A stretch of 64,000 bases of DNA from Desulfatiglandales bacterium (GTDB lineage: Bacteria; Desulfobacterota; DSM-4660; Desulfatiglandales; Desulfatiglandaceae), in assembly GCA_963662465.1 (NCBI GenBank), contig OY759599.1:1088001-1152000 (forward strand). The letters are read 5' to 3'. Under the pieces are notes generated by a model that was not told the DNA's origin, did no database searches, and was given only the letters and a program-made list of their open reading frames with translations. Position numbers and translations under genes: made by a program. Below, piece after piece: positions 6,782 through 64,000 of the stretch (its first letter is position 1; each line of letters opens with the position of its first letter).

Positions 6782-6882
6782 TTTTATTCCTCCTCCGTAG
6801 CAAATTGAGCGTAGTCCGCAAATACCCGTCCGCTAAAAACAAGGGTCCGGGATGAAAAGGGTGCATCCGCGGTTTCTGACAT

Positions 6883-6954
6883 GTGCGGCTAAAGCCGCAC
6901 CTACAGCACTTCGAAAACAGTACGACGGAACGGTAGGTGCGAAGTTATTCGCAC
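6883..6954. repeat. Inverted pair of GTAG-type REP palindromes
   Basis: rc GTAGGTGCGGCTTTAGCCGCAC (6883-6904) and GTAGGTGCGAAGTTATTCGCAC (6933-6954). Confidence 0.7.
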
Positions 6955-7314
6955 CGTGACGGATGAGTCGCTGTTCTGTTTGAAACATCGGATGCACCTG
7001 ACGGAAACCCCGCCAATTGCATGCTTCGCAAAAAGACGCCGGCAGCATCTTATATTTGTCGCATGCTGCGGCAAAAGCTTTTATAAGCCTTGGCGGAGGC
7101 GGGCATCAGAGTGACTGGTGTTCAGACCTCGGTCCGGTTTTCTTTGAACGAAATCCCGTCGGAAATGCCGATTAGTGAAAAAACATATATTCCGTGATTT
7201 CCCTTGTGTCAAGGGGAAAATATGCGGGTATTTTCCGTTCACCGTTGGTCAAGGTTCCCTCCCCTGTTTCTTCAAATGAAAAAAATCCCATGGGTCCTTC
7301 CATGAAAACCCATT

Positions 7315-14479: not shown

Positions 14480-16057
14480 ATGATGGAAAAGAGAAGATCG
14501 AAATCAAAAGCTTATTGTTCATCCGTAAACCTCATGGCCGCAATATTTTCCATACTGCTGCTATTGGGGCTCTTTCACTGCCATTCGTGGGCCGCCTCGG
14601 CGGCGCCGGATATCAAAGTGAACGGCGTGGATGAATTGACCACCCTCACAACCACCAGCACCCTCACGGCGACCATCCAAATGGACGCCGGAGAACAGAC
14701 CGGAGAGCAGGCCGACTGGTGGATTGTCGCTGAAACGCCCATGGGGTGGTATTATTATGGATATCCCGACGGATGGTATTTGGGTGGAAACGGCATAGAA
14801 GATCTTAAGCCTGCTTACCAGGGTTCCCTTTTCAAGCTGACGGATCCCCTGGAGGTATTGCGGATATCAGCGCTTCCGGTCGGAGATTATGTGTTTTATT
14901 TCGCTGTGGACACGACGGTAAACGGTGTGGTGGATGAAGGGGGGCTATCCTACGACCTGGTTGCCTTCGAGGTGGTGGAAGCGATGGAAACCGTATCCTA
15001 CCCCGTGGTGGATACCGGCCAGACCGCCTGTTATGATGATAATGGAGACGAAATCAGCTGCCCTGAATCGGGTGATGCTTTTGCCGGCCAGGATGCCCAG
15101 CATGAGGGCTTTCAGTTCAGCTACACCGACAATGGCAATGGCGCCATTACCGATAATGTCACCGGCCTGATGTGGCAGCAGACCCCCGGTAATAGGGGCT
15201 TAAGTCGGCAAGAGGCGGTTGACTATTGTGAATCCCTGGAACTGGCGGGCTTTGATGACTGGCGCATACCCACCTTGAAGGAGTTGTTTTCCATCAGTGA
15301 CTTTTCAAAAGGATGGCCCTATTTGAATACGGACTATTTCGATCTGGCCGGAACAAGCGTCAGTAAAGATGAACAATATTGGGCGGATTCTTACGTGGGC
15401 ATGACCGTAGAGGGTGGCTCGGAAGCAGCTTTCGGCGTGAATCACGGCACGGGTCATATCAAGGCTTATCCGGCCAAGGTCTCCGGTCCCATGGGAAATT
15501 ATGTGCGTGCCGTTCGCGGAAACACGTATGGCGTCAATGAATTCGTGGACAATGGCGACGGCACCATCACCGACAATGCCACGGGGTTGATGTGGCAACA
15601 GGCGGACAGCGGCAGCGGCATGGATTGGGAAGATGCCCTGGCTTACGCCGAGAGTGCCACGCTGGCTGGGTACAATGACTGGCGTCTGCCCAATATCAAG
15701 GAACTCCAGAGCATCGTCGATTACACCCATTCCCCCAGTGCAAGCGAGGCGGCCAACCTTGGACCCGCCATTGATACGGATTATTTCCAAATCACCGAAC
15801 TTCCCTCCGGCACGACGAACACCACCACCGATTATGGCTACTTCTGGAGCAGCACGAGCGCCTATTTCGGTGGGGACAGTCCTGAATATTACTATGCCTG
15901 GTATGTGGCCTTTGGAACCGCAGTGGACGGTAATGGTGATGATTTTCATGGCGCCGGCGCCGTCCGATTTGACACAAAGGCCGAAGACGGACCTCTGGGA
16001 GAAGGCGGTGAGCGGTATTACAATTATGTCCGCCTGGTGCGCGACGCGAACAATTAA
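14480..16057 (+). CDS. Secreted protein with two DUF1566 (Lcl C-terminal) domains
   Basis: DTGQTACYD; two DNGxGxITDNxTGLMWQQ...DWRxPxxKEL...YVRxVR units. Confidence 0.9.
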   Translation: MMEKRRSKSKAYCSSVNLMAAIFSILLLLGLFHCHSWAASAAPDIKVNGVDELTTLTTTSTLTATIQMDAGEQTGEQADWWIVAETPMGWYYYGYPDGWYLGGNGIEDLKPAYQGSLFKLTDPLEVLRISALPVGDYVFYFAVDTTVNGVVDEGGLSYDLVAFEVVEAMETVSYPVVDTGQTACYDDNGDEISCPESGDAFAGQDAQHEGFQFSYTDNGNGAITDNVTGLMWQQTPGNRGLSRQEAVDYCESLELAGFDDWRIPTLKELFSISDFSKGWPYLNTDYFDLAGTSVSKDEQYWADSYVGMTVEGGSEAAFGVNHGTGHIKAYPAKVSGPMGNYVRAVRGNTYGVNEFVDNGDGTITDNATGLMWQQADSGSGMDWEDALAYAESATLAGYNDWRLPNIKELQSIVDYTHSPSASEAANLGPAIDTDYFQITELPSGTTNTTTDYGYFWSSTSAYFGGDSPEYYYAWYVAFGTAVDGNGDDFHGAGAVRFDTKAEDGPLGEGGERYYNYVRLVRDANN

Positions 16058-39459: not shown

Positions 39460-40558
39460 ATGATACGAAAGGCCGTTTTTCCAGGGTGTTATTTGCAGGG
39501 GAAGGATATCCTCCGAAATCTTGGGGGAATCGATGAACTTGAAAAGAAAAAAGTCTTCATTCTCGCCACGAATATGGCCGTGAAGAGAATTATTCCGGAA
39601 AACTTCTCTGCCTGGAAAAAAATATGCGACATCCAATATGAGAAATTCAGCGGAGCGTGTACCTGGGATGAAATCAACAGGGTATCCAAGATAGCAGGCG
39701 TCGGCGCCTATGATTTTATCATCGGCATGGGAGGAGGGAAGGCCATTGATACCGCCAGGGTGGTTGCCGGGCAGTTGGGCGTAAAATATATCGCGGCGCC
39801 CACCATCGCCGCTACCGACGCACCCACCGCAAGTGCGTGCGTCGTCTACGGCAACGGAGGTTCGGTTGTGAACTATTTTACGACACGTAATCCCGATTAC
39901 GTTCTGGTGGATACGAGGGTCATTGCTGAAGCGCCGGCAAGGTTTCTTGTTTCCGGAATGGGCGATGCGCTTGCGACCTGGTTTGAAGCGGAGACCTGTG
40001 ATCGATCCCATTTCCGAAACGTATGCGGAGGGTTTAATCTCAGGGCCATCATGTCCCTCGCCGATACGTGCTACCAGCCTTCTAACATACGGCAGATCAG
40101 CCATGATCGCCTGCGAAAATAACGTGGTAAGTCCGGCGCTTGAATACATTGTGGAAGCCAATACCCTGCTCAGTGGACTTGGTTTCGAATCCGGGGGGCT
40201 ATCAACCGCACACGGCATTCATGACTGTCTCTGCAATCTGGAAGGCACGCACGCATATTATCACGGTGAAAAGGTGGCATTCGGCATCCTGGCCGGGTTA
40301 TTCCTTGAAGCGAGGCCACAGCCTTTGATAGAAGAGGTGTACGCATTCTGCGGATCCGTCGGACTGCCGACCACATTGGCCCGGATTGGTCTGGCGGGTG
40401 TTACAAACAGGGAATTGGATGCTGCCATTTGTCCGGTTCTTGAGAACAAACAAAGCTATCTGCATAACGTGAGATTCGAGTTGACATCCGAAGGGATCAT
40501 CGAGGCCCTCCGAATGGCGGATGCCATGGGTCGTCAACACCGAAGCAGCCTACCATAA
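39460..40558 (+). pseudogene. gldA: Glycerol dehydrogenase, frameshifted near 40075
   Basis: GGGKAID, PTIAATDAPT, GMGDALATWFEA in one frame; EANTLLSGLGFESGGL, HGEKVAFG in the next. Confidence 0.85.
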
Positions 40559-40813
40559 GACCATGGCGGCTTTTGACGGAATCCTGGGACTGGACCGGCT
40601 CAAAGTGATTCACCTTAACGATGCCCGCCGGGAGCTGGGTTCCAGGGTTGACCGTCACCATCACATCGGAAAAGGGAAAATCGGCGCTTTGGGGTTTTCA
40701 CTGATCATGAACGATGGACGTTTGGCCCACATACCGAAAATACTGGAAACTCCCAAGAAAGAGGGCGGTATCGACTGGGATCGAAAGAACCTGGATTGTC
40801 TGTCAGCCATGTT
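40538..40813 (+). pseudogene. Duplicate of the endonuclease IV 3' end
   Basis: Highly similar to 50453-50728 (HLNDA...DRHHHIG...ILETP). Confidence 0.9.
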
Positions 40814-44496: not shown

Positions 44497-44558
44497 ACCC
44501 AACAAGGCTTTTGCAGGGGAACGCAAAAAGCCGTGGTCACTGAAAAGCAGCGTTGTGT
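44497..44558 (+). other. Integron attC-like recombination site
   Basis: ACCCAAC ... GTTGTGT ends; GCTTTTGCAG pairs with CTGAAAAGC leaving one extrahelical base; starts 3 bp after the stop codon. Confidence 0.65.
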
Positions 44559-44639: not shown

Positions 44640-44785
44640 TCGTTCCCACGCTCTGCGTGGGAACGGTTTTCGGACGCTCTGCGTCCCGGTTTAGACCTCT
44701 AAGAAATGGGCTTGTAGCGGTTCAAAAGACGAATTGTCGGACGCGGGAGCGTCCAAGGTAGGTTCCCACGCAAAGCATGGGAACC
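44640..44785. repeat. Composite REP/MITE-like palindrome
   Basis: CGTTCCCACGCTCTGCGTGGGAACG, GGACGCTCTGCGTCC, GGACGCGGGAGCGTCC, GTTCCCACGCAAAGCATGGGAAC. Confidence 0.75.
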
Positions 44786-44832
44786 AGAAGGGTCTTTTGC
44801 CCCTGCAAATGGCCGGAATGATGATCAAGGCC

Positions 44833-44935
44833 GAACCTTGATGAAAAAGACGTCCTTGATTGCCTTGATGATGCTCGGCTGCGTGAATAAAAAATCAAGG
44901 AATCAAGGCAATCAAGAAAATCAAGGTTCAGACAA
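44833..44935. repeat. Inverted cluster of ATCAAG short repeats ending GGTTCAGACAA
   Basis: GAACCTTGAT / ATCAAGGTTC and CCTTGATTGCCTTGAT / ATCAAGGCAATCAAG. Confidence 0.65.
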
Positions 44936-44955
44936 ATGAAAAACTGTCCCGGCTT

Positions 44956-45314
44956 ATGTCGGTAGCCGAATATACGACCGGACGGACGCCGGGCGCCCGC
45001 GGGGGCGAACCGGGGAAGAAGAAAATCGATTACAAAGAGGTCTTGTCCCCGGAAGATTTTTCCATTTTTGTAAAATTGCGGATTGGCGCAAGGAGAGGGC
45101 CGTCCGGGAAGCGGTTCCGCTTTACACCGTTTTCATGAATGACCAGCTTGCGGCCATGGTTCAAAAAAAGATCACCACCAAGGCGGGATTAAAGCAGATT
45201 GAAGGGGTAGGGGATGCCAGGGTTGAAAAGTACGGGGATGCCGTACTCGCCATTTTAAAGCAGTCCTATACGCCTCCGGACCAAAAAAATGAAACGGGCA
45301 AATCACCTGTATGA
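44956..45314 (+). pseudogene. HRDC-domain DGR accessory gene, frameshifted near 45080 and probably 5'-truncated
   Basis: KIDYKEVLSPEDFSIFVKLR / DWRKERAVREAVPLYTVFMNDQLAAM...QIEGVGDARVEKYG; overlaps the RT start. Confidence 0.8.
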
Positions 45315-46293
45315 CAAAATTTCCACCCATGAGAATTTGCACCTTGCTTTCCGGAAGGCTGCCAAAGGTAAGCAGTCCCATGCGGAAGTGGTGCAGTTTA
45401 AAAATCAATTTGACGCCAATATCCAAAACCTAAGAGAACAATTGGCGACCGGCAAGCCGGATATCGGGCATTACCATTTTTTTACGGTGCATGATCCCAA
45501 AGTAAGGAACATTTGTGCGGCCTCATTTCCGGAGCGGGTCCTTCATCATGCGGTCATGAATTTGTGCGAACCTCATCTGGATGCCTACGCTATTCACGAT
45601 TCCTATGCCTGCCGGATAGGGAAAGGGAATCGGAAAGCGCTGGCACGGGCGCAGGAATTTGCCCGCAAATACCCCTGGTATTTGAAACTGGATATCGCCC
45701 GGTATTTTGATTCCATTGACCACGAAATTGCATTGCACTTGCTGTCGCGGCAGTTCAAAGAGAAAAAGCTGTTGGCATTGTTTGCCGCAATTTTGAATAC
45801 CTATCACTCAAAACCGGGCAAAGGGGCGCCCATCGGCAACCTCATATCCCAGCACCTGACCAATTTTTACCTGGGGGCATTGGATCACTGGATAAAGGAA
45901 ACCCGGAAAATCAAAGGCTATGTCCGATACATGGATGATTTTATCCTTTTTTCCGATCAAAAAGCACATCTCAAATTGGAACTGGCGGAAATAATCCAAT
46001 TCCTGGAAACCCAACTGGCCTTGAAACTGAAAGAGAATATTCAAATCAACCGGACCGTTCTAGGTATCCCTTTTCTGGGGTTCCGTGTGTTTCCGGCTCA
46101 CACTCGGTTGTTGCCCCGAACCCGAAAACGGTTTTCACAAAAATTGAGGGAATATGAACGGAAATATATTGAAGGTCAATGGACTGAAACTGATTTGGTT
46201 CGGCATGCTGAACCGCTGATGGCGTTTACCGATGCCGAGGACAGCGTGCCGTTCAGGCGCATGGTCCTCCATCGTTTTGGGGTTTTGTCCTGA
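45289..46293 (+). CDS. DGR-type reverse transcriptase
   Basis: [59 protein letters not shown]; 334 aa, no maturase or endonuclease domain. Confidence 0.92.
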
Positions 46294-46295
46294 GA

Positions 46296-46420
46296 GGCTC
46301 AAACCGTGTGATTCGGGGCGGCAGTTGGAACAACAACGTGCGGAACTGTCGGTCGGCTAATCGCAACAACAACAATCCGGACAACAGGAACAACAACATA
46401 GGGTTTAGGCTTCTTCTCTC
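46296..46420 (+). repeat. DGR template repeat (TR)
   Basis: Non-genic stretch reading [39 protein letters not shown], with 14 AAY codons. Confidence 0.9.
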
Positions 46421-46501
46421 CTCAGCTCACCAGATCAGCGGATGCTGACTGCTGACCCATGGACAAAATCCCGTCCCTTGCAAAAAGGGCAAAAAGCAGA
46501 C

Positions 46502-46557
46502 ACCCGACCGGGGTTGGTAACCGGAACGGAACGTTCCGGCGAACATCCCGATCGGGT
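46502..46557 (+). other. Nested stem-loop downstream of TR
   Basis: ACCCGACCGGG / CCCGATCGGGT enclosing CCGGAACG-GAA-CGTTCCGG. Confidence 0.6.
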
Positions 46558-46594
46558 TTTTACCATGAAAATACATCGCGGGGGCCTGCTGTGA

Positions 46595-46622
46595 GTAGAG
46601 ACAAGGCATGTTTTGTCTCTAC
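46595..46622. repeat. GTAG REP-like palindrome
   Basis: GTAGAGACAAGGCATGTTTTGTCTCTAC. Confidence 0.65.
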
Positions 46623-46794
46623 AGCCTCGACTGTCGCGGCAGGATGGGGTTTGAAGGAAATTGGCCGTATCCTAATCCTGTTCATCGTGTTTAATCCTGT
46701 GAATCGTGTTCAAAACGGGAAGGATGCCGACAATGACGGATGCCCCGTACACATGGTGTTGACAACCCACCCAAAATACGTTTAAATACTTCCC

Positions 46795-47844
46795 ATGGTC
46801 GAACATGACAACAGTTATAAGCTTCTTTTTTCCCATAAGGAAATGGTGCGGGACCTGCTTCTGGGGTTTGTGAAGGAGGAGTGGGTTCAGGGGCTGGATA
46901 CGGAAAGCCTTGAACGGGTGAATGGATCGTATGTGAGCGATAATATCCGGGATCGGCATGATGATATCGTCTGGCGGGTGAAATGGGGCAGGGAGTGGCT
47001 CTATGTGTATATTGTGATTGAATTTCAATCCACCATCGACATATACATGCCGCTTCGCGTACTGGTGTATGTTGGGCTTTTGTACCAGGATCTGATCCGG
47101 GAAAAGAAGTTGAGTCCTTCAGGCAAACTGCCGCCCGTATTGCCGGTGGTATTGTACAACGGAAAGCCCCGGTGGAATGGGCCTGTTGAAATATCGGATT
47201 TGATAGAATTCGTGCCCGGAGGTCTTTCCCGATATTGTCCCCGATTCACCTTTTTGCTGCTGGATGAGGGGGCATATGCCGATGAAACCCTGAAGCCGCT
47301 CAAAAATGTGGTGTCGGCCCTGTTTCGCCTTGAAAACAGCCGGGACCCGGAAGTGATCATGGAGATTGTGTCTTCCCTTTTGAAGTGGTTGTCCGTCCCG
47401 GAACAGGCAAGTTTGAGACGGGCTTTTACGGTTTGGTTTAACCGGGTGTTTTTTACCTCGTGGCGGCGGACGAATAAAAAGGCGTTGCCTGAATTTCATG
47501 AGCTTACGGAGGTACACGCAATGCTGGCGGAAACAGTTGCGGAATGGCAAGAAGAATGGAAACGGGAGGGCCTGAAAAAAGGACTGAAAAAAGGACTGAA
47601 AAAAGGACTGAAAAAAGGACTGAAAAAAGGACTGAAAAAAGGCCGTGAGGAAGGCCGTGAGGAAGGCCGTGAGGAAGGCCGGAAACAGTGGGGCGCCAGT
47701 ATCCTTTTGAAGCATCTGGAGTTCAAATTTGGAACGCTGAATCTGAAAGATCGTAAAAGAGTTGAATCAGCCGACAGCGAGACGCTCCTGAAATGGAGCG
47801 AAAAGGTTTTAACCGCTGGGAGCGTTGAGGAAATTTTTGAATAG
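46795..47844 (+). CDS. Rpn/YhgA-like PD-(D/E)XK nuclease family protein
   Basis: HDNSYKLLFS, DIVWRV, IEFQS, LPPVLPVVLYNG, EG-repeat linker, DUF4351-like tail. Confidence 0.9.
   Translation: MVEHDNSYKLLFSHKEMVRDLLLGFVKEEWVQGLDTESLERVNGSYVSDNIRDRHDDIVWRVKWGREWLYVYIVIEFQSTIDIYMPLRVLVYVGLLYQDLIREKKLSPSGKLPPVLPVVLYNGKPRWNGPVEISDLIEFVPGGLSRYCPRFTFLLLDEGAYADETLKPLKNVVSALFRLENSRDPEVIMEIVSSLLKWLSVPEQASLRRAFTVWFNRVFFTSWRRTNKKALPEFHELTEVHAMLAETVAEWQEEWKREGLKKGLKKGLKKGLKKGLKKGLKKGREEGREEGREEGRKQWGASILLKHLEFKFGTLNLKDRKRVESADSETLLKWSEKVLTAGSVEEIFE
47569..47682 (+). repeat. In-frame 12-bp tandem repeats (GLKK x6, GREE x3)
   Basis: GG(A/C)CTGAAAAAA x6 then GGCCGTGAGGAA x3. Confidence 0.95.
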
Positions 47845-49865: not shown

Positions 49866-50822
49866 ATGACGCAAGGATTATGTCACCCTCTTCTCGGCGC
49901 CCATTTTTCTATTGCTGGCGGTTTTCATAAGGCATTGTATACGGCCATGGACTACGGCTGCACCGCTGTCCAAATCTTCACCAAGAACGCCAGTACCTGG
50001 AAAGAACGGATTTTGACCGATCAAGATATTGAAACCTTCGATCGGGCACGGCGGGAAACCGGCATTAAAGCCATCGCTTCCCATACGGCCTACCTGATCA
50101 ATCTCGGTTCCCCGGAAAAGAAAAAATTCGACCGGGCCTGCACCGCTCTGACTTGTGAGATGACCCGATCCGCCCAACTCGGCATTCCCTGGGTGGTCCA
50201 TCATCCCGGCGCCCACATGGGGACCGGCGAGGCCGTGGGCATTTCCCGGATTGCGGAAGGCATCAACCGGGTGCTTCATGAAAGCCGGGACAAGGGCCCG
50301 CGGCTTCTGCTGGAAACCTGCGCCGGCCAGGGCACGACCCTGGGGCATACCTTTGAACAGCTCGCCGCCATTTTCGAAAGGGTCGAACAGCGCGATCGCC
50401 TCGGGTTTTGTCTCGATACCTGCCATATCTTTGTCGCCGGCTATGATATCCGCACTGAAGCAGCCTATCATAAGACCATGGCGGCCTTTGACGGAATCCT
50501 GGGGTTGGACCGGCTTAAACTGATCCACCTTAACGATGCCCGACGGGAGCTGGGTTCCAGGGTTGACCGTCATCATCATATCGGAAAAGGGGAAATCGGT
50601 CCTCTGGGGTTTTCACTGATCATGAACGATAGACGTCTGGCCCGCATACCGAAAATACTGGAAACCCCCAAGAAAGAGGGCGATATCGACTGGGATCGAA
50701 AGAACCTGGATTGCCTGTTGGCCATGTTGGCGCAAAGATCCTCAGGAAGGGGGCCCAAAAAAACCCATTCCCTGCTGCCCTTGCCCATCCTGGTAGATGT
50801 GCAGCAGGTGACCGCCCGTTGA
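49866..50822 (+). CDS. nfo: Endonuclease IV
   Basis: GAHFSIAGG, YLINL, HPG, LLET, CLDTCH, HLND, DRH, ILETP. Confidence 0.95.
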   Translation: MTQGLCHPLLGAHFSIAGGFHKALYTAMDYGCTAVQIFTKNASTWKERILTDQDIETFDRARRETGIKAIASHTAYLINLGSPEKKKFDRACTALTCEMTRSAQLGIPWVVHHPGAHMGTGEAVGISRIAEGINRVLHESRDKGPRLLLETCAGQGTTLGHTFEQLAAIFERVEQRDRLGFCLDTCHIFVAGYDIRTEAAYHKTMAAFDGILGLDRLKLIHLNDARRELGSRVDRHHHIGKGEIGPLGFSLIMNDRRLARIPKILETPKKEGDIDWDRKNLDCLLAMLAQRSSGRGPKKTHSLLPLPILVDVQQVTAR

Positions 50823-55043: not shown

Positions 55044-55197
55044 CACCGAAAACACAATTTAATATCTCAACTGGCGGGTGCCGCTCCCCTGGAATGGAGC
55101 ATCGAAAGATGAGGACCCCTTAATGGATGCCACGGAGATCAATTTCATTTTTGATTTTTGTGGCATTTTTTTTGTGCCACGGGAAGGGGAAGTTAAA

Positions 55198-55428
55198 ATG
55201 GCACAAGCATGGGGAGGAATCAAAGACGCTTGCCAGTATGCAGGGCGATGTGAGCGAACAGTAAGAAACTGGCTGGCGGAGGGATTAAGGCACAGTAGGT
55301 TGCCGAGCGGAAGAATCCTTATCAAATTTGACGACATCGATAATTACCTTTCGCAATTTGCAGTGACCGAATCCGAGATTGACCGGCAGGTGAGCGAGAT
55401 GCTGCGCGGCATGGGACGGAGGTGTTGA
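55198..55428 (+). CDS. Excisionase-like HTH protein
   Basis: IKDACQYAGRCERTVRNWLAEGL...GRILIKFDDIDNYL. Confidence 0.8.
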   Translation: MAQAWGGIKDACQYAGRCERTVRNWLAEGLRHSRLPSGRILIKFDDIDNYLSQFAVTESEIDRQVSEMLRGMGRRC

Positions 55429-55430
55429 CC

Positions 55431-56612
55431 ATGGGCTCATCACAACCAGGTTTTTTTAGTGCAGATGAACTGGCAGCGGATTTCGGAATTGAAAATCCCA
55501 TCGACAAAAAGAGCCTAACTGCTCGCTGGATCGTGCCTCCATTTAGCGTGCTGGATAGCCGTCAATCTTATTGGCAAAAGCGCAAAAGGCAGTGGCTCAA
55601 TTTGGGAATCCAGAGCGAGTTGGGCAGAGGCGAGGCATTAACGCTCGGCATCACGCCCGATGGAAAATCCACAAAAGATAAAAATGTAGCATGGACGGAC
55701 CGTGGCAAAGCCAAATTATCACCTGGTGGCTCGCCCATGCCAGCCGCAGACTACAGCCGACGCGAGAGAGGCGATGGGCGTGGACGACCAATGGCCAGAT
55801 GTTTCGGGGAGGATTTGATGAAGGGCGAAAACGCCAAATTTGCAAAAGCGCAACCGGCAATTAACTCCTTATATAATAGGAGCGAAACCGCAGGCGGCAC
55901 CGAATCCAAGACCGGCACATCCATTTTTGATCCGTGCTTGTGCGAGCTGGCAAATCAATGGTTTTGCCGTCCGGGTGGCCACCTGCTTGATCCTTTTGCT
56001 GGTGGCTCTGTTAGAGGCATCGTGGCATCAGTAACCGGACGGAATTACACCGGAATTGACCTATCTGAGAGGCAAATTGTGGCCAACAGGGAGCAAGGCC
56101 AGGAGCTATGCAAGGAGCCCATGCCGGAATGGATTGTGGGCGATGCTGGCGACGTGAGAACCCTTGCTGGCGGACCTTTTGATCTGCTTTTTTCATGTCC
56201 GCCCTATGGGAATCTTGAGGTTTATAGTGATGATCCACAAGACCTTTCAACCATGAGCTGGGATGAGTTTTTGAGCGCCTATCAACACATCATTAAAGAG
56301 TGCTGCCGGATGCTGCGCCCTCATCGTTTTGCAATTTTTGTGGTGGGCGACATCAGAGACAAGGACGGGCACTATCGCAATTTACCAGGCGCAACCATCA
56401 CCGCGTTTCAAGCAGCCGGACTGCAATTATACAACCATGCAATCTTACTTAACGCGCTGGGCTCCTTGCCGATCAGGGCGCACAAGCAGATGGCAGCATC
56501 ACGCAAACTGGGGAAGGGGCACCAGGATGTGCTGGTGTTTTGCAAGGGTTCATGGCGCAAAGCGGTGGCGGAGCTGGCGGATGAACAGATAAGAGGCAGT
56601 TATTTACGTTAA
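55431..56612 (+). CDS. Phage-type amino (N4C/N6A) DNA methyltransferase
   Basis: TSIFDP, LDPFAGGSVRG, GIDL, SCPPY, HQDVLVF. Confidence 0.85.
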   Translation: MGSSQPGFFSADELAADFGIENPIDKKSLTARWIVPPFSVLDSRQSYWQKRKRQWLNLGIQSELGRGEALTLGITPDGKSTKDKNVAWTDRGKAKLSPGGSPMPAADYSRRERGDGRGRPMARCFGEDLMKGENAKFAKAQPAINSLYNRSETAGGTESKTGTSIFDPCLCELANQWFCRPGGHLLDPFAGGSVRGIVASVTGRNYTGIDLSERQIVANREQGQELCKEPMPEWIVGDAGDVRTLAGGPFDLLFSCPPYGNLEVYSDDPQDLSTMSWDEFLSAYQHIIKECCRMLRPHRFAIFVVGDIRDKDGHYRNLPGATITAFQAAGLQLYNHAILLNALGSLPIRAHKQMAASRKLGKGHQDVLVFCKGSWRKAVAELADEQIRGSYLR

Positions 56613-56705
56613 GCCGTCTGGGCCCGTGCCGCTCCGGGAATGGGGCGGCAAGCGCTTCCTCCAACAGCGTGGGCCCAGATTTTTAAAATTTTGAAAGGGT
56701 TTGAA

Positions 56706-56960
56706 ATGGAACAGATACGGGTGAAATCATCAACAGAATTGATGGATATGAAATTTGAGCCAAAAGTAATTTGTGACGGAAAATGGATCACCATATTAAA
56801 TGATCACGGTGGTTATGACATCGAATTATCACGGTGTAATACCGCACAATCAATACTGGCGTGGGTTGCTCATCTGAGCGAAAAAATCTGGATTGAAACA
56901 CAAATGATTAATGAATTTGTGAAAATTGCTACGAAAAAAGCAGGCATAAAAATTTATTGA
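56706..56960 (+). CDS. Hypothetical phage protein
   Basis: Co-oriented ORF, YDIELSRC...WVAHLSEK. Confidence 0.6.
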   Translation: MEQIRVKSSTELMDMKFEPKVICDGKWITILNDHGGYDIELSRCNTAQSILAWVAHLSEKIWIETQMINEFVKIATKKAGIKIY

Positions 56961-57047
56961 ACGGCTTGCTCGGGGTGCCTCCTTGCAGGGAGGTAAAGGG
57001 CTCCTGCAAAGCCCAACTCCGAGCAATTTTCCATTGCAGGAGGAAAT

Positions 57048-59114
57048 ATGGACACAACACAATTAACAAGATTTGAACCTGATAAAATACCTCGGCGGAT
57101 GAGGATGCACAAGCAATGGATATGCTGGCGTCCGGTGCCACGAGACGGCGGCAAGGTAGATAAAATCCCGATTGATCCACAAACCCTCCGAGCGGCAAAG
57201 ACAAATGATAAGACCACCTGGACAGATTTCAAAACGGCGGTGGCATCGGCAAAGGCTAACAGCCTCGGGCTCGGTTTTGTGTTTTCAGAAACGGATACTT
57301 TTTGCGGGATCGACCTTGACGACTGCTTTGAGAACGGCAGACCGGTTGACTGGGCGCAAAACCTAGTTGAACAAATGGGCTCATATGCGGAGGTGACTCC
57401 ATCGGGCAAGGGGTTGCATATCATAGCCATGGGCGAGCTGCGAGGCAAGAGGCGGAGGAAGGGCCAGGTTGAGGCGTACCAGACCGGGCGCTTTTTTACG
57501 GTTACAGGTGCGAGATTGACGGACATCAATTATGTGGCCGAAAACCAGGACGGGATTGATCAGTTTTATCAGACCCATTTTGATGAGCCTGAGCCTGTGC
57601 CGGTTGCGCCACCGAAACCTGAGCCAGTATCGACACCGACACACACAGAAAATAATATCTTAAATGGGCTCAAATCCATATCAGCTTTTGAGCGTTTGTT
57701 CAATGGCGACATGGGCACCTATCCAAGTCAATCGGAGGCGGACCTCGCCTTGTGTAGCATGATTGCGCGGAGGACGGATGATCCACAGATGATTGATGAG
57801 ATTTTTCGTCAGTCAAGACTTTACCGTGACAAATGGGACCAGCTTAGGGGAGCCCAAACCTATGGTGGGATCACCATCGGCAAGGCGCTTGAGGGTGCGC
57901 CAGCTATCCCCACCATTGGCATAAGCACAAGGGATATGGATGTAGAGATCGAGCAATACAAGCCATTTCCCATGGATATTATGGGCGGACTTGCTGGTGA
58001 CTTTGCCATGGCGCAAAGCCAATGCGTGGAGGCGCCACCGGAGTTTTTGTATATGGCGTTTTTAACCTGCCTTGGATCAATACTATCCGGCAGAGCAACC
58101 ATTGCCATGGGGTGGGAGATACAGCCGAGGCTATACGTTTTGATCCTGGGTGAAACCGCAGAAGGGCGAAAATCCACAGCACTTAAGATTGTGACAAACT
58201 TCTTCAAGGATGCGTTTCGGGAAGACGAGCCAGCAAGTTTGAATTCTTCCTGGGGTTTCGGAAGCGCTGAAGGTTTACAAAAAGCTCTATCGGAGAATAA
58301 CAATTTATTGCTGTGTCTGGATGAGTTTAAAGCTTTTGTCTCAAAAGCCAGCATCAAAGGCAGCGTGCTACTCCCTGCCGTGACGCAGCTCTTTGAGAGT
58401 AACAGTTATGAGAACCAGACGAAAACCACACACCTTAAAATACAGGATGCTCATTTTTCGCTGTTGGCAGCGAGTACCATCGACACATATGAGAGAACAT
58501 GGGATGCGTCATTTTCGGATATCGGGTTCCTCAACCGGTTGTTTCTCATCGTGGGAAAGTCCGAGCGCAGGTTTGCATTCCCACAGCGATTAGACCAACA
58601 AACAGCCACCCATTACAAGGCGAGACTGCGCCAGATGATACACAAGATATATGCCGTTGATGGAGGCTTGATGCAGCTAGGATTTACACCTGATGCACAA
58701 GAGAAACACAGTGACTGGTATTTCAACCAGGATGAATCAATATACTCGCGCAGGCTGGACACATATGCACTAAGGTTGATGATCCTGCTGGCCATAAACG
58801 AGGGTAAAACGCTGATCGACAGCGAGGTGGTTGCTAAGGTTATCCGGCTTTGTGACTGGCAGCTTGATATCCGTAAATCACTGAGCCCGATTGACGGAGA
58901 TAATGCAGCGGCAATCATGGAGGAAAAGATCAGGAGAGCGCTGGCCACAAAGGGAGATTTAACTAAGAGAGAGTTGAGGAGATTTACAAATGCAGACCGG
59001 AGCGGTTTATGGTTATTCGATACTGCGTTAACGAATTTGATTAAAGCGGAGGAGGCGACACTTGCAAAAAGCGGACGCACGGAACTGTATCATTATATTC
59101 AACTGTCGTCATAA
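57048..59114 (+). CDS. NrS-1-like primase-polymerase fused to DUF3987-like P-loop domain
   Basis: GIDLDDC, YAEVTPSGKGLH, RFFTVTG, SQSEADLAL, SRLYRDKW; GETAEGRKST, LCLDEF. Confidence 0.85.
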   Translation: MDTTQLTRFEPDKIPRRMRMHKQWICWRPVPRDGGKVDKIPIDPQTLRAAKTNDKTTWTDFKTAVASAKANSLGLGFVFSETDTFCGIDLDDCFENGRPVDWAQNLVEQMGSYAEVTPSGKGLHIIAMGELRGKRRRKGQVEAYQTGRFFTVTGARLTDINYVAENQDGIDQFYQTHFDEPEPVPVAPPKPEPVSTPTHTENNILNGLKSISAFERLFNGDMGTYPSQSEADLALCSMIARRTDDPQMIDEIFRQSRLYRDKWDQLRGAQTYGGITIGKALEGAPAIPTIGISTRDMDVEIEQYKPFPMDIMGGLAGDFAMAQSQCVEAPPEFLYMAFLTCLGSILSGRATIAMGWEIQPRLYVLILGETAEGRKSTALKIVTNFFKDAFREDEPASLNSSWGFGSAEGLQKALSENNNLLLCLDEFKAFVSKASIKGSVLLPAVTQLFESNSYENQTKTTHLKIQDAHFSLLAASTIDTYERTWDASFSDIGFLNRLFLIVGKSERRFAFPQRLDQQTATHYKARLRQMIHKIYAVDGGLMQLGFTPDAQEKHSDWYFNQDESIYSRRLDTYALRLMILLAINEGKTLIDSEVVAKVIRLCDWQLDIRKSLSPIDGDNAAAIMEEKIRRALATKGDLTKRELRRFTNADRSGLWLFDTALTNLIKAEEATLAKSGRTELYHYIQLSS

Positions 59115-59340
59115 CTGTCGTCAGGGGGTTTACGACAGTTATGTGGTTGATATGTTTAAGGAAACTGAAACTGTCGTCAAGATTAGTATATGTGGTACAG
59201 CTCCAGGCAAAACAATAATAAAATCTCTATATATCTATATGGGGGTAAAAACTGACGACACAAAGATATAAATGTAGTTATTTAAAGGAGTTAACTGTCG
59301 TAAATGGGCGACGACACTTTGACGACAGTTGACGACAGTT
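59101..59340. repeat. Iteron-like array, candidate replication origin
   Basis: About nine copies of (AA)CTGTCGT(C)A or variants in both orientations around an AT-rich core. Confidence 0.8.
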
Positions 59341-59372
59341 TGAGATATATAAATCTGTGGAGGAAAAGAGTT

Positions 59373-59711
59373 ATGGGACGAAATTGGACCGACGAAATGA
59401 ACATTGATGAGGCGGTGGCGGTGGCGGATCTGCTCGGGATCAAGCACGAGCTGCGCCATACCAGCAACCAGGATTTTATGATTGATTTATACTGCCGTTT
59501 GATTGCGCTTGATAATGGCGTGATGTTTATCCGACGATATGAATTTGTGTGGAGTACCATATATGGCCAGGTAATTGAATGGTTTCAAAGGGCGCAGGAT
59601 GCTCTATGGAATTGCAATCGGTATGGAGCGGCAGACCATGGACCAGGCCAGCGGTGGGCGGCAGGACGGCAGGCACAGAAGAAATCTGACTCGGCACAAG
59701 TCTTGTCTTGA
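59373..59711 (+). CDS. Hypothetical phage protein
   Basis: GGAGG SD, co-oriented ORF. Confidence 0.55.
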   Translation: MGRNWTDEMNIDEAVAVADLLGIKHELRHTSNQDFMIDLYCRLIALDNGVMFIRRYEFVWSTIYGQVIEWFQRAQDALWNCNRYGAADHGPGQRWAAGRQAQKKSDSAQVLS

Positions 59712-59761
59712 AACTGTATCAGGTTAATCCATAATTATGATACAGTTTTTGGGAGGTAGAA

Positions 59762-60160
59762 ATGAAACGAATTAAGGCAAAAATAAGGCAAAAACCGACC
59801 GATGGAGACGCCATGGCGCAGACCATCAAGACCGACGCCATTGACGGCAGGACCAAGCAGGCACGGCACATCAAGCGGATAAAGGACGGCTTGACCGATG
59901 CTCCCATCAACACCGCAAAGGCGCTGCTCAAGGCGCTCGTGGCGCAGAACACGGTGATCTCGCAGGAGATCTATAACGCTGCGCTCAACTCCGGCAGCCT
60001 CATCGACGCAAAGGGCAAGCTCAATCCACTCATCGAAAAGTCCCTGGTCAAATACCAGAACGCCAGCAAATCGGCTTTGATCGAGCTATTGAAACTTGAG
60101 GGCGGCAAGGCAGAGGACAATCCGGAGGACATTTTCAGCGATGTTTTTGACGGTTGCTAG
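59762..60160 (+). CDS. Helical protein, candidate terminase small subunit
   Basis: GGAGG SD; IDGRT; KLNPLI; acidic tail; upstream of terL. Confidence 0.5.
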   Translation: MKRIKAKIRQKPTDGDAMAQTIKTDAIDGRTKQARHIKRIKDGLTDAPINTAKALLKALVAQNTVISQEIYNAALNSGSLIDAKGKLNPLIEKSLVKYQNASKSALIELLKLEGGKAEDNPEDIFSDVFDGC

Positions 60161-60286
60161 TATAGCATCAAGGCAAAACCTGGTGCCTATCCCTATGTTT
60201 TCTTTGTGGATTCCGTTTTCTCCTCTGCCGGTGGTTGCACCTGGGGAGCAATTCCGGCATGAAAACGGGGATTATCACCGGCTCCT

Positions 60287-60376
60287 GGGCCCAGGACCGG
60301 GTGCGGATATGCCGACGGACACCATGGCGCAGGGCCCAGGACCGGGTGCGGATATGACGACGGACACCATGGCGCA
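60287..60376 (+). repeat. 45-bp tandem duplication
   Basis: GGGCCCAGGACCGGGTGCGGATATG(C/A)CGACGGACACCATGGCGCA x2. Confidence 0.95.
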
Positions 60377-60661
60377 GGGCATGGGCAAGGCCATTGCAAG
60401 GGCGCTATCACTACCTCCGATTGTGGGGCGGATGTGGGTGTCACAAGGCATAATCTGTACCTTAAATCAATAGCTTGTGGGAGGCCCCGACCTCGCGGTG
60501 TTGAAAACGATTTTTAATCGGGTATGAGCCCACACCCAAAATGTCAAAAATTAAAAATTATAGCATGACGCAAAACGCCAAAACCCAAAATGTAAAATTC
60601 AAAAATTATAACACACTGGCCATGGCCAGACACATAAACCCAAAAGAGAGAGGTAAAGACA

Positions 60662-60967
60662 ATGTGGCAAATAATTGATGTGCATTTGACGAACGATAGT
60701 GAGGGCGAGATCAAACTCGTCCGGCTCAATGAACAGGGAAAACCCACAACCGAGCGGATGGTCTTGCCCATTACCGTGACGGATAAATTTGATTTTACAA
60801 CCGCACCCGAAACCTTAACCGACGGTGCGGTGGCTGAATTGCTTGACGACATCCTCGAAACCTTGGATGTGGACGAGGAGCCGTTTCAACCAGCGTATAT
60901 TGTCTCGACCATGGCAAAACCAGCGCAACCCACAAAGGCAAAAGTAGTGGGCAAACTCAACGCCTAA
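60662..60967 (+). CDS. Hypothetical phage protein
   Basis: GAGG SD, co-oriented ORF. Confidence 0.6.
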   Translation: MWQIIDVHLTNDSEGEIKLVRLNEQGKPTTERMVLPITVTDKFDFTTAPETLTDGAVAELLDDILETLDVDEEPFQPAYIVSTMAKPAQPTKAKVVGKLNA

Positions 60968-60997
60968 CACCAAATTATTAACACAAAAAATCACACA

Positions 60998-61043
60998 GAA
61001 CCTCTTTGAAGGTCCGTGATTGAACAGGACACCTAGGAGGTTC
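60998..61043 (+). promoter_or_regulatory. Hairpin sequestering the terminase RBS
   Basis: GAACCTC (60998-61004) pairs with GAGGTTC (61037-61043), covering GGAGG 61036-61040. Confidence 0.6.
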
Positions 61044-61045
61044 CC

Positions 61046-62860
61046 ATGGGCACCGAAACAGCGACAAAACCCAGCAACAAAGACAGAGTTAAGAAATGGC
61101 GAGCAAACACACCCGAGGCGTTTCTCCAGTGGGTTGATGACATCAAGCCTCGCATATTGATAAACTCAAGATACGAGATATTTCAACCGACCGAAAACCA
61201 GCTCAAACTTATACACCAAATCCTGAAGCCAGCCGAAAATCCTATTAATCAATCTGTGGATGAGCCCGTGCAAGCCATAGGCGAGCGGTCCCATAACGCC
61301 AGGAAAGCCAGACCTTCCCGCAAAACAAAACCGGTTGACGAGGAGCAGCAACAGGCAAGGCGCTCATCTTTTCAACACAGCCTATCATTAATAATAGAGC
61401 CCAGACGTCATGGCAAATCCACTCTATTTTGCTTGATGTGTTTGTGGTTGTTCACCAGCCGGAGAAACATCACCATCCAGCTCCTGGGAAACACGGAATC
61501 CCACTGCCGCAGGGTCCAGTTTTCAACCGTCAAGAAAATCATTGCTAACACGCCGACGCTGCGGAAGCTCATACCGGAAAAGCAGATGTTTGTGTATGAA
61601 ATCTTTTTCCCTGCGCTCGGCAATGTTTTGCAGATGAGCCCAGGAAATAATCCCTCCACTTCCTTTGGCGAAAAAATAGATGTCCTCTGGGTGTCCGATT
61701 TACACGCATCCACCGACCTGGCACCGTTCAACGCTCTTCAAGGCTCGCTCCTTGACTCCAAGGATTCTGTTTGCTGGCTCGACTCCAATGTGGACAGCAA
61801 GGGTGGCACCGTACACATGATCCAGGAGGAGGCGGTAAATGATCCGTCAATTTTCGCGCACCATACCTTTTACCGGGACTTGAATCATTACTGCGCAGAG
61901 GCACCGCCATGGATTTCCCGCACAAAGGCCAGACGCCTGGCGAAAACTTCTCTCCCTGCTGATTTCCGTAGAGATATTTTGGGCAAGCGCTCTGACGCTT
62001 CAAACGCTCTCTTCCCATCGGACGTTATTGAAATGTGCAAGAGCCCATATAAATGTCCGGTTGAGGATATTCAAACTTTGACGCAGGGACGAGCGTATTT
62101 TGTGGGTGGCGGTTTGGATAGATCGAAATCATTGCTGGGCAGTACATTTGGTGCCGATGCCACTATTTGGACCTGCGTTTTGAAAGTAGCAAATCCCAAA
62201 AATGAGGAACCCGAGATTTTCCTTTTGAACCAGGTGAACGTCATACCGAACACCGCAGCAAATATCAAAAAAATCATACTCAAGGACCACCAGCGTTATG
62301 GTTTGAAAATGGCTTGCCTTGAGGATTACGAAACCATGGATATTATCCCATGGCTGGAAGCCCAGAACATTCCCGTTGAAAAAATGTCACCTCATTCAAC
62401 GCGGCAGAATGCGTCATTTCCGGAGCTGGCCAGAATCTCACGAGAGGGCAGGCTCCATTTTCCCGAGGACGAAAAAGGGCTCGCCGATGAAATGGCCACA
62501 TTCAGCTATGTGAAAGCTCCCAGGGGTGAGGGTTATTCATTTGGCCATTCTAGCAAAAATCAGCACGACGACAGAGTTTATTCCCTGAACTGGGCCATTT
62601 ATGCTTTACGCAGTCAAATCATGAACCTTTACACCCTCAACCGTATCACCTGCACATCAAAACGACCGAACCGGCACCTCTGTTTTTTGATGGGCGGCAG
62701 CTTGGAATTACACTGCGCCCAAAACTGCGAGGCAGCAGTTGAAGTGCGCGACATGCACCGGCAGTTCCTTCAATATCAGCTCGACAGTGATATTGACTTA
62801 TCCCAATTTTACAAAAACCACGTAAAATTGACCGGAATAAAAACATATCAGGCCATATAG
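61046..62860 (+). CDS. Terminase large subunit-like protein
   Basis: Walker A PRRHGKS; nuclease GLD...D and HDDRVYSL; followed by portal. Confidence 0.85.
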   Translation: MGTETATKPSNKDRVKKWRANTPEAFLQWVDDIKPRILINSRYEIFQPTENQLKLIHQILKPAENPINQSVDEPVQAIGERSHNARKARPSRKTKPVDEEQQQARRSSFQHSLSLIIEPRRHGKSTLFCLMCLWLFTSRRNITIQLLGNTESHCRRVQFSTVKKIIANTPTLRKLIPEKQMFVYEIFFPALGNVLQMSPGNNPSTSFGEKIDVLWVSDLHASTDLAPFNALQGSLLDSKDSVCWLDSNVDSKGGTVHMIQEEAVNDPSIFAHHTFYRDLNHYCAEAPPWISRTKARRLAKTSLPADFRRDILGKRSDASNALFPSDVIEMCKSPYKCPVEDIQTLTQGRAYFVGGGLDRSKSLLGSTFGADATIWTCVLKVANPKNEEPEIFLLNQVNVIPNTAANIKKIILKDHQRYGLKMACLEDYETMDIIPWLEAQNIPVEKMSPHSTRQNASFPELARISREGRLHFPEDEKGLADEMATFSYVKAPRGEGYSFGHSSKNQHDDRVYSLNWAIYALRSQIMNLYTLNRITCTSKRPNRHLCFLMGGSLELHCAQNCEAAVEVRDMHRQFLQYQLDSDIDLSQFYKNHVKLTGIKTYQAI

Positions 62861-62862
62861 CC

Positions 62863-63090
62863 ATGATTGACGCAATAAATAACAAAACAGACCAAAAAAA
62901 AGACTGGACAAATCGGAAAACATCAATTATGGTTGATATTCGATGTTTTAACTGCAATCGGTTGTTATGCACGGGGCACATAACCGAGGGAGAAATAGTT
63001 ATCAAGTGTGGTAAGTGCGGCAAGATGATAACTATAGGCGCACATGGCGCACAACCGGCAACGGTTAAAACGGTCCGGTTAGTGCGCTAA
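62863..63090 (+). CDS. Com-family zinc-ribbon protein
   Basis: DIRCFNCNRLL...IVIKCGKCG. Confidence 0.75.
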   Translation: MIDAINNKTDQKKDWTNRKTSIMVDIRCFNCNRLLCTGHITEGEIVIKCGKCGKMITIGAHGAQPATVKTVRLVR

Positions 63091-63120
63091 AAATCACAAA
63101 AGAAATCAGAGCCCATTCAG

Positions 63121-63158
63121 AGGCCATTTGCGGATTATACCGCAGGTGGCCTTTTTTA
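63121..63158 (+). terminator. Terminator-like hairpin before the portal gene
   Basis: AGGCCATTTGCGG-ATTATA-CCGCAGGTGGCCT then TTTTT. Confidence 0.7.
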
Positions 63159-63180
63159 GTTTGCCCCAAAGGAAAAAACA

Positions 63181-64000
63181 ATGCTTTGGAATAGTACAGC
63201 AAAAGACGTGGTGCAGAAGATGTTCAAGGAAGCTGCGGAGAAGGAAACGCGAGCCAGGAAGGATGATACCATCAAGCGCTTGTCCTATTATCACGATGAG
63301 CAAGAGGCGTATATCACCGAGCAGCTCAATCAGCACCACGCCGATCCGGACGCTTTTACGCCTGTTTTTTTCAACGTCTGCAAAAAAATCATCAATCAGC
63401 TCTCCATGGTTTACATGGCGGACGCAACACGAGAGATTGACGGCAGCGTCCAAGACAAAGCCATATTCGACATGATTGTGGATTCTTCAAATCTGAATCT
63501 CAAGATGAAAACCGCCTCCCGTTATACGCAGCTCTTAAAAACAATCATGCTGCGTCCGATCTGGCGACAGGGAAAAATGGACCTGGATATATATGATGGG
63601 AGCATACTTGACGTTGAAACCGGTGACTCTCCCGAACACCTGGAAAGGGTGATGGTTACGCACTATCCACAGAGCGGAGAATCTAAGGACATCGAATATA
63701 GTTTATGGGACATCGAAACATACCGCAGGCTGGATTATAACGGCAACACCCTCGAAAACGCACAAAACCCATATCAAGTAATCCCTTTTGTGCCGATCTG
63801 GGCAAGCTATCCGGCAACCGGCAGTTTCTGGGCGGCAGGCGGTAATGATTTAATCTCGGTGCAAAGTACCATCAACCAAAAACTCACGGATTTAATGTTA
63901 GTTTTGGAATATCAGGGTTTTGGTGTTCCTGTGGCAAAAGGGTTGCCCACGGGTGGAAATTTGCACATCGGACCGAATACCGCAGTGGAAATCGAAAATC
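63181..64000 (+). CDS. Phage portal protein (SPP1 gp6-like), runs off window
   Basis: Manual translation MLWNSTAKD...SYYHDEQ...NVCKKIINQLSMVY...NPYQVIPFV...LISVQSTIN...YQGFG; open to the window end. Confidence 0.8.
   Translation, partial: MLWNSTAKDVVQKMFKEAAEKETRARKDDTIKRLSYYHDEQEAYITEQLNQHHADPDAFTPVFFNVCKKIINQLSMVYMADATREIDGSVQDKAIFDMIVDSSNLNLKMKTASRYTQLLKTIMLRPIWRQGKMDLDIYDGSILDVETGDSPEHLERVMVTHYPQSGESKDIEYSLWDIETYRRLDYNGNTLENAQNPYQVIPFVPIWASYPATGSFWAAGGNDLISVQSTINQKLTDLMLVLEYQGFGVPVAKGLPTGGNLHIGPNTAVEIEN

Follow-up and report, generated by a model that had tools for sequence, protein, structure and literature searches.

The question raised by this locus was whether a reverse transcriptase (RT) gene, preceded by an HRDC gene and followed by an asparagine-rich repeat, constitutes a diversity-generating retroelement (DGR) and, if so, where its target lies and whether the element still works. 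The window analysed was a 64-kb stretch (positions 1,088,001-1,152,000) of contig C1 of genome G000, which consists of this single contig of 8.16 Mb. A sequence-only reading had described an HRDC-RT-template repeat (TR) cassette, chromosomal and lying outside the prophage. In this study, we report that its identity as a DGR was borne out by the RT clade, an adenine-biased variable region (VR) and an FGE-sulfatase target. The complete working cassette which that description implied was not found, given that the window contains no target, the HRDC gene has lost its N-terminal domain and the exchange between TR and VR has seemingly stopped.

Reverse transcriptase, template repeat and variable region

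The RT gene (45289-46293, + strand) is intact, as had been described, with a stop-free ORF of 334 aa matching RVT_1 (E 1.4e-15). It carries the GxxxSQ motif as IGNLISQ (I182-Q188) together with YMDD (214-217), and R73 and D135 are also kept. In the alignment with the bRT of BPP-1, R73, I182 and Q188 correspond to R74, I181 and Q187; adenine mutagenesis was tied to R74 and I181 in the part of Handa et al. (PMC7826257) available to us. The best PDB match was bRT (8ub7_A, E 1.4e-40), while the best group II RT reached E 5.4e-16. In a tree of 23 rows, which included four group II intron RTs that this genome also encodes and contained no retron RT, our RT grouped with BPP-1 bRT and the ANMV-1 RT and was split from those four intron RTs with 100/100 support; forcing it together with them was rejected (p-AU 1.3e-5). 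A further RT of the genome, at 0.40 Mb, was also placed among the DGR RTs. The closest relatives came from Desulfatiglandales and Desulfobacterales records, and none of 79 metagenome loci contained a relative closer than 63%.

Other RT classes were considered and rejected. The group II intron RT/maturase model TIGR04416 scored 104 bits against a cut-off of 300, and neither the QGxxxSP motif nor the grouping with intron RTs that also define this class was found. The retron model NF038233 scored 45 against 235 bits, matches to retron and DRT models being weak and far below cut-off, and the Rfam scan gave one chance match. As a separate observation, a high-depth 422-nt contig of run X4 contains a 99%-identical RT 3' fragment (window 46066-46293) with unrelated flanks and no TR.

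The TR (46293-46433, + strand) begins 2 bp behind the RT stop and, as previously described, has 14 AAY codons and a translation ending in NRNNNIGFR. Its mutable part (46293-46407) is followed by an IMH*-like 3' end (46408-46433) seen in ungapped alignments, the boundary being a presumed one; the first 117 nt hold 38 adenines and there are 21 variable codons. A blast search of the TR against the genome, an alignment that had been proposed as a check, revealed the cognate VR at genome positions 7,469,356-7,469,496. The mismatches concentrate on TR adenines. Within the first 117 nt, the VR departs from the TR at 24 of 38 adenines, with 13 changes to G, 8 to T and 3 to C, but at just 4 of 79 other bases (Fisher p 1.9e-11). 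When the VR was read as the template the bias disappeared (1/15 against 27/102). In an adenine-masked scan of the genome, 74 of 78 non-A positions matched at 7,469,359, while the best score outside this DGR and a sister DGR (see below) was 50. Richness in AAY is common by itself, with 14 places in the genome having at least 12 AAY in 47 codons; it is therefore the VR match, and not the AAY count, that exceeds chance. The scan, covering both strands, found no further VR for this TR, the other FGE genes of the genome scoring at most 50 of 78.

The TR and VR ends resemble each other with the difference typical of the class, CAGCTCAC in the TR and CAGGTCAG in the VR, and both the IMH/IMH* pair and a GC-rich inverted repeat 3' of the VR are present as sequence features; the latter hairpin, folded as RNA, had a z of -3.8. 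Behind the TR there is a putative structured, spacer-like RNA segment (46428-46560, + strand) with a long GC-rich hairpin at its end. The stretch 46420-46562 folded better than its shuffles (z -3.3), and compensatory changes were seen in 8 of 16 predicted pairs of 46416-46530 across 16 relatives, in an alignment without shuffle control.

The VR makes up the final 47 codons of a gene at genome positions 7,465,363-7,469,499, which encodes a secreted-looking protein of about 1,380 aa with a C-terminal FGE-sulfatase (C-type lectin) domain, the kind of adenine-biased VR that had been predicted. The main frame of 1,300 aa contains InlB-B-like, Ig-like and FGE-sulfatase domains, the last at residues 1070-1294 (E 1.3e-42), and about 10^20 VR peptides are possible. 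A signal-peptide-like leader, recognised by eye, lies one frame off the main ORF owing to a 1-bp slip at about 7,465,522, probably an assembly error like that of the HRDC gene (see below), since the homologues in genomes G004 and G010 read through. In G010, the leader module (78-82% identical) also heads 570-aa kelch-like proteins lacking the FGE domain (L191-L193), which marks it as a shuffled secretion or anchoring module.

Taken together, it is practically certain that the locus is a genuine DGR, and neither outcome named beforehand as refuting it, an RT grouping with group II introns or retrons or a missing adenine-biased VR, occurred. That the RT belongs to a group II intron, a retron or a defence system and merely adjoins a chance asparagine-rich repeat, as the weak model matches might suggest, can be dismissed as extremely improbable, all those scores being far under cut-off, the tree and AU test placing the RT with DGR RTs, and the VR differences being adenine-specific.

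Accessory gene, sister element and present activity

The gene upstream of the RT (44956-45314, + strand) encodes a real HRDC domain (PF00570, E 1.8e-15) and overlaps the RT start by 26 nt, in agreement with the earlier description, but it is not intact. An assembly frameshift at 45079/45080 leaves no single ORF spanning the gene. This frameshift was rejected as a real lesion, the missing G being present in the contigs of all four public runs compared over this stretch of the window: an extra G after 45079 appeared at full depth in X1, X4 and X6 (53.8/53.8 in the best-covered run) and at about half depth in X3. Once this error is allowed for, the product has about 119 aa and keeps the linker, the KVDY motif and the HRDC domain, while the beta-alpha-beta-beta N-terminal domain of about 50 residues is gone. 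The 5' part of the gene has been replaced by a dispersed genomic repeat (44831-44970, + strand; blastn coverage and alignments), with some 10-14 similar stretches in the genome, which provides the ATG at 44956; most copies have ACG at that position. The truncation is real, as a contig of X1 bridges the 5' junction, being identical to the window over 44743-46332 with 0 other letters and a single gap (the missing G). It must be noted that X1 may be the window's own sample and thus checks the assembly without being independent support. The truncated junction was also found in another sample, X4 (contig covering 44901-45173). A 94%-identical relative in X6 is unlike the window left of 44968, as expected if it keeps the original HRDC start.

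According to the alignment, the lost domain includes four near-invariant residues (N23, F25, L26 and W47). Among 142 HRDC matches, the window's counted, 120 share their ORF with the N-terminal domain. The remaining 22 are the window's own, 4 frameshifted genes, 8 judged by eye to diverge in their N-terminal part, 7 lying close to contig ends, 1 from a wrecked cassette and 1 further case. When the genome was searched with an HMM of the domain, the single copy found was that of the sister DGR. Its structural model had a mean pLDDT of 89 and a beta-alpha-beta-beta topology, and a fold search with the whole protein gave weak S6/ACT-like matches (Z at most 5.0), which provide no assignment. The wrecked cassette, from a Desulfobacteraceae (L076:2050-4200), is an independent case in the same DGR family: HRDC is cut at nearly the same position, an rpn-like gene separates it from an RT that is frameshifted, and there is no TR. 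In addition, the reading frame of four of five close Planctomycete copies (L022, L025, L026 and L035, at about 5700-5750) is broken within the G-rich linker that joins the N-terminal and HRDC domains, whereas L036 is in frame; a long-read error or a slippage-prone site may be the reason. HRDC as the accessory class was upheld. There is no avd gene at the locus, and NF033474 gave three matches in the genome, all under cut-off (0.40, 3.61 and 7.11 Mb). In the literature found on this question, as far as the sources were available, the role of the HRDC accessory protein is only inferred.

In a complete element, the RNA of the TR and the structured 3' segment would be copied by the RT, adenines would be miscopied during cDNA synthesis, and the cDNA would take the place of the VR at the target's 3' end, with the IMH and the downstream DNA hairpin as guides; this mechanism comes from the literature, and the parts were identified here from sequence. 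Given the loss of the HRDC N-terminal part, the cassette is probably dormant. The TR and VR differ at 4 of 71 core non-A positions, against 54 of 4,340 (1.2%) in 59 related pairs in cis (binomial p 0.012, a test that treats related pairs as independent and includes pairs that may be dead), and 3 of those 59 pairs also have four such mismatches. At two of the four, the VR has the same state as the TR of G004 and the TR of the sister DGR, so that it is the TR that changed, without the change being copied to the VR. The RT has a private A191T substitution, absent from 59 other RTs (A190 in bRT); relatives from runs X3 and X6, 94-95% identical, have an Ala codon there (45859 A>G). Against dormancy, the RT is otherwise unremarkable, with 2 deviations at 90%-conserved columns (median 3), and its private residues, at 3.4 per 100 columns, fall in the middle of the range of 60 RTs; general decay was not seen. 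The 3' RNA has likewise kept its structure, and this part of the DGR tree often shows non-A changes: the available part of Wu et al. (2018; PMC5758913) gives non-A-to-N changes in 23% of DGRs, more commonly near lineage 4. We consider it likely, from the truncated HRDC gene, the uncopied TR changes and A191T, that the element is currently inactive.

Alternatively, the DGR could be active on its remote target, as that of Treponema is on its own, with the 119-aa HRDC protein sufficing or no accessory protein being needed. RT, TR, 3' RNA, IMH and VR hairpin are all there, the frameshift is an artefact with an in-frame ATG at hand, and the recurrence of the truncated junction in X4 also fits; the part of Wu et al. 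(2018; PMC5758913) at hand reports targets more than 100 kb away for 10 of 372 DGRs, as well as DGRs without avd. This alternative nevertheless appears unlikely, in view of the near-invariant residues lost, the TR-side changes absent from the VR, and the wrecked state of the cassette in L076, the sole other clear truncation among the cases examined. Furthermore, promoter and terminator scans stayed at chance level (6 promoter-like sites against 5.1 expected) and no Shine-Dalgarno motif was evident by eye.

The genome holds a sister HRDC-type DGR at 2,624,925-2,627,255 (L086:3925-6256, - strand). It comprises a 393-aa PEGA-FGE target, VR2 (genome 2,626,074-2,626,214), a strong hairpin (z -5.9), a full HRDC gene of 168 aa (HRDC2), an RT remnant (RT2) and TR2. 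VR2 was changed at 23 of 30 TR2 adenines against 4 of 87 other positions. RT2 consists of 94 codons with a stop and two large deletions, while HRDC2, TR2, VR2 and the hairpin are intact. This DGR is complete in G005 and G008, while G003 and G007 have the same target with no cassette after it. Cross-pairing of the two elements gave 14 non-A mismatches in 79 positions for TR1/VR2 and 16 in 87 for TR2/VR1, so that the cognate pairs are TR1/VR1 (the present element) and TR2/VR2.

One intact RT and one full-length HRDC of the family thus exist in the genome, in separate cassettes, which raises the idea of complementary degeneration: RT1 might act in trans with HRDC2, the composite machine diversifying VR2 via TR2 and perhaps VR1. 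The intact neighbours of the dead RT2, the background rate of TR2/VR2 mismatches (1 in 67 core positions), the likeness of IMH and 3' RNA between the cassettes (78%), and experiments in which DGR parts worked in trans (Wu et al., 2018, PMC5758913, in the part available) would agree with this. The few private residues of RT2 (2 in 93, one of them the stop) indicate, however, that it died recently, which itself explains its intact neighbours. Selection on HRDC2 outlasting RT2 was examined and rejected: an excess of amino-acid changes in RT2 (dN/dS 0.22 against 0.02 and 0), from a comparison in which the G008 target and one G008 HRDC row held alignment artefacts, did not hold after polarisation. 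Moreover, the two RTs are just 67% identical over the remnant, neither VR has a tract of the other TR's bases, and the targets of G003 and G007 indicate that plain loss of the cassette is a normal fate here. Action in trans is accordingly doubtful; if true, two sister DGRs that lost complementary parts would now form one machine, and the locus would show how a remote target can arise by cassette fission instead of target duplication.

Probable separation of the cassette from its target

On a circular chromosome, with which the GC skew agrees, target and cassette are 1.83 Mb from each other across the contig join; on a linear one the distance is 6.33 Mb. In the same-genus genome G004, the order target-VR-hairpin-HRDC-RT-TR is contiguous. 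Positions 4575-4826 and 4825-5362 of its locus L031 match the leader of the remote target and its 3' end with the hairpin (68 and 77%), and positions 5715-7142 match window 45013-46560 (76 and 88%), the TR and 3' structured segment being 88% identical; the RT of G004 is the sister of that of the window (81% identical, 100/100). The two loci of G000 complement each other as halves of the G004 cassette and have only TR/VR in common. At the target locus, a BrnT/BrnA-like pair, recognised by eye, stands in place of HRDC-RT-TR. The cassette is followed (46559-47844, + strand) by a module of two dispersed repeats with an rpn (YhgA-like) gene, the latter matching Transposase_31, and the target has the same module behind it; there the rpn copy (genome 7,470,443-7,471,208) is 97.1% identical over 766 nt, the next copies reaching 77%. 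This near-identical module is likely a mark of the rearrangement, and the dS of the rpn pair (0.065) is compatible with the depth of the TR1/VR1 mismatches.

Since the cassette is contiguous in G004, the remote target very probably arose by fission, the two loci being halves of one cassette. The split would have left target, VR and hairpin at 7.47 Mb and the truncated HRDC gene, RT and TR at 1.13 Mb, with the N-terminal HRDC domain cut off. The simplest route would be a duplication that took the rpn module along, with reciprocal loss afterwards; recombination at the repeats would be another. G004 does not settle the route, as its cassette is damaged and neither half shows synteny with its flanks. 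That cassette (L031:4580-7142) is itself decayed: the target has lost its middle, its leader being fused to FGE, the 3' end of the RT lacks 118 nt, and HRDC appears to be frameshifted where it starts.

An origin from two sister cassettes, acquired separately or duplicated long ago, with VR1 written by a sister TR since lost, would account for the four core non-A differences and further TR1-specific bases near IMH*, for the position of both loci in patches of mobile or accessory genes and for the absent synteny with G004. Such an origin is improbable, given the exact complementarity of the loci, the rpn neighbours being each other's closest copies, and the fact that no remnant was found in the genome of either a second HRDC N-terminal domain or a third RT of the family. 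Fission thus remains the preferred origin, and the case is a readable one, with a contiguous orthologue to compare.

With respect to the surroundings, the cassette belongs to a patch of accessory genes that includes AAA-ATPases, GrpB and rpn. Prophage-like genes (methyltransferase, primase, terminase large subunit) begin at 55.4 kb, about 9 kb downstream; the region 55078-63475 appears to be a prophage or satellite with a ParB-methyltransferase, an NrS-1-type primase-helicase and a terminase large subunit. As housekeeping genes intervene, namely an endonuclease IV-type TIM barrel, PPDK_N proteins and a glutamate dehydrogenase-like ORF (the last by eye), the DGR is chromosomal and outside the prophage-like region, as had been claimed. 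No structural phage gene was found among five neighbours scanned (41.6-49.8 kb), and a tRNA scan of the window gave none.

Several other traits of the window must be mentioned. A 276-nt piece of the 3' end of an endonuclease IV-like gene is duplicated (40538-40813 and 50453-50728, 92% identical), flanking the 41-50 kb accessory patch, and may mark an insertion or rearrangement boundary. An Fe-ADH (glycerol dehydrogenase-like) gene is split across two frames at 39460-40558, which could be a 1-bp assembly slip or a pseudogene. At 14480-16057 a 525-aa protein, not matched by TR1, has two Lcl_C (DUF1566) domains, whose fold is one that CLec2 DGRs use as a target. Directly 3' of the AT-rich GrpB gene there is an attC-like site (44497-44558, RYYYAAC ... 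GTT) with 83%-identical copies near genome position 654 kb; bottom-strand folding of this site gave no support (z -0.3). The identifications as rpn, BrnT/BrnA and attC are in part putative.

Comparison with known systems

Judged by its sequence features, the element is of a known kind, an HRDC (architecture C) DGR with a category-b target; the labels architecture C, CLec1, category b and IMH are those of Wu et al. (2018; PMC5758913), as used in the part available. We lean somewhat towards the reading of the whole as a canonical HRDC/CLec1 DGR that was split and damaged and is probably dormant. As a DGR it is ordinary, the target-HRDC-RT-TR cassette occurring in most of the related loci fetched. 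Among 83 such loci, two of which are the same G004 stretch and one of which was missed because its strand was misread, 58 had an adenine-biased TR/VR pair in cis, including 35 of the 42 with at least 3 kb upstream, and HRDC stood just before the RT in 63 of the 75 with room. Full HRDC, N-domain-less HRDC and an RT-less cassette provide a natural set of variants for testing the accessory role of HRDC. In the literature found, available in part, there was no report of split, degenerate or cross-acting DGRs, although the supplements of Wu et al. (2018) could list cases.

The closest counterparts are in the same genus: G004 (L002/L031) carries the orthologous cassette, with RT and target deletions, and G005 (L003) and G008 (L004) carry the complete sister DGR, all three keeping target-VR-HRDC-RT-TR together. 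Another DGR-like RT of G004 (L105:26-1130 on C3), with an AAC-rich repeat and a NACHT-like gene behind it, belongs to a different DGR class. With architecture C/CLec1 as presented in the available part of Wu et al. (2018; PMC5758913), the element shares the HRDC gene, the AAC-rich TR, the C-terminal VR in an FGE-sulfatase domain, the chromosomal location and a remote target more than 100 kb away; it differs in having no adjacent target, a truncated HRDC gene and a remote target traceable to a cassette break. The Treponema denticola DGR, as far as the accessible portion of PMC4891356 describes it, likewise has an HRDC gene that overlaps the start of the RT, shows no association with phage and acts on dispersed surface-protein targets, but there the accessory gene stands between the TR and the RT and a core target is kept, whereas here the order is HRDC-RT-TR with a single remote target. 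The BPP-1 DGR (mtd-avd-TR-brt; PDB 8UB7; PMC7826257 and PMC3240598, the latter also on the role of the hairpin in retrohoming, both in part) is alike in the [I/V/L]GxxxSQ motif, the IMH with its downstream hairpin and the structured 3' TR RNA. In contrast to it, the present element has no avd, its TR follows the RT, its RT is 34% identical (96/282), it is cellular, and its hairpin is long where that of BPP-1 has an 8-bp stem.
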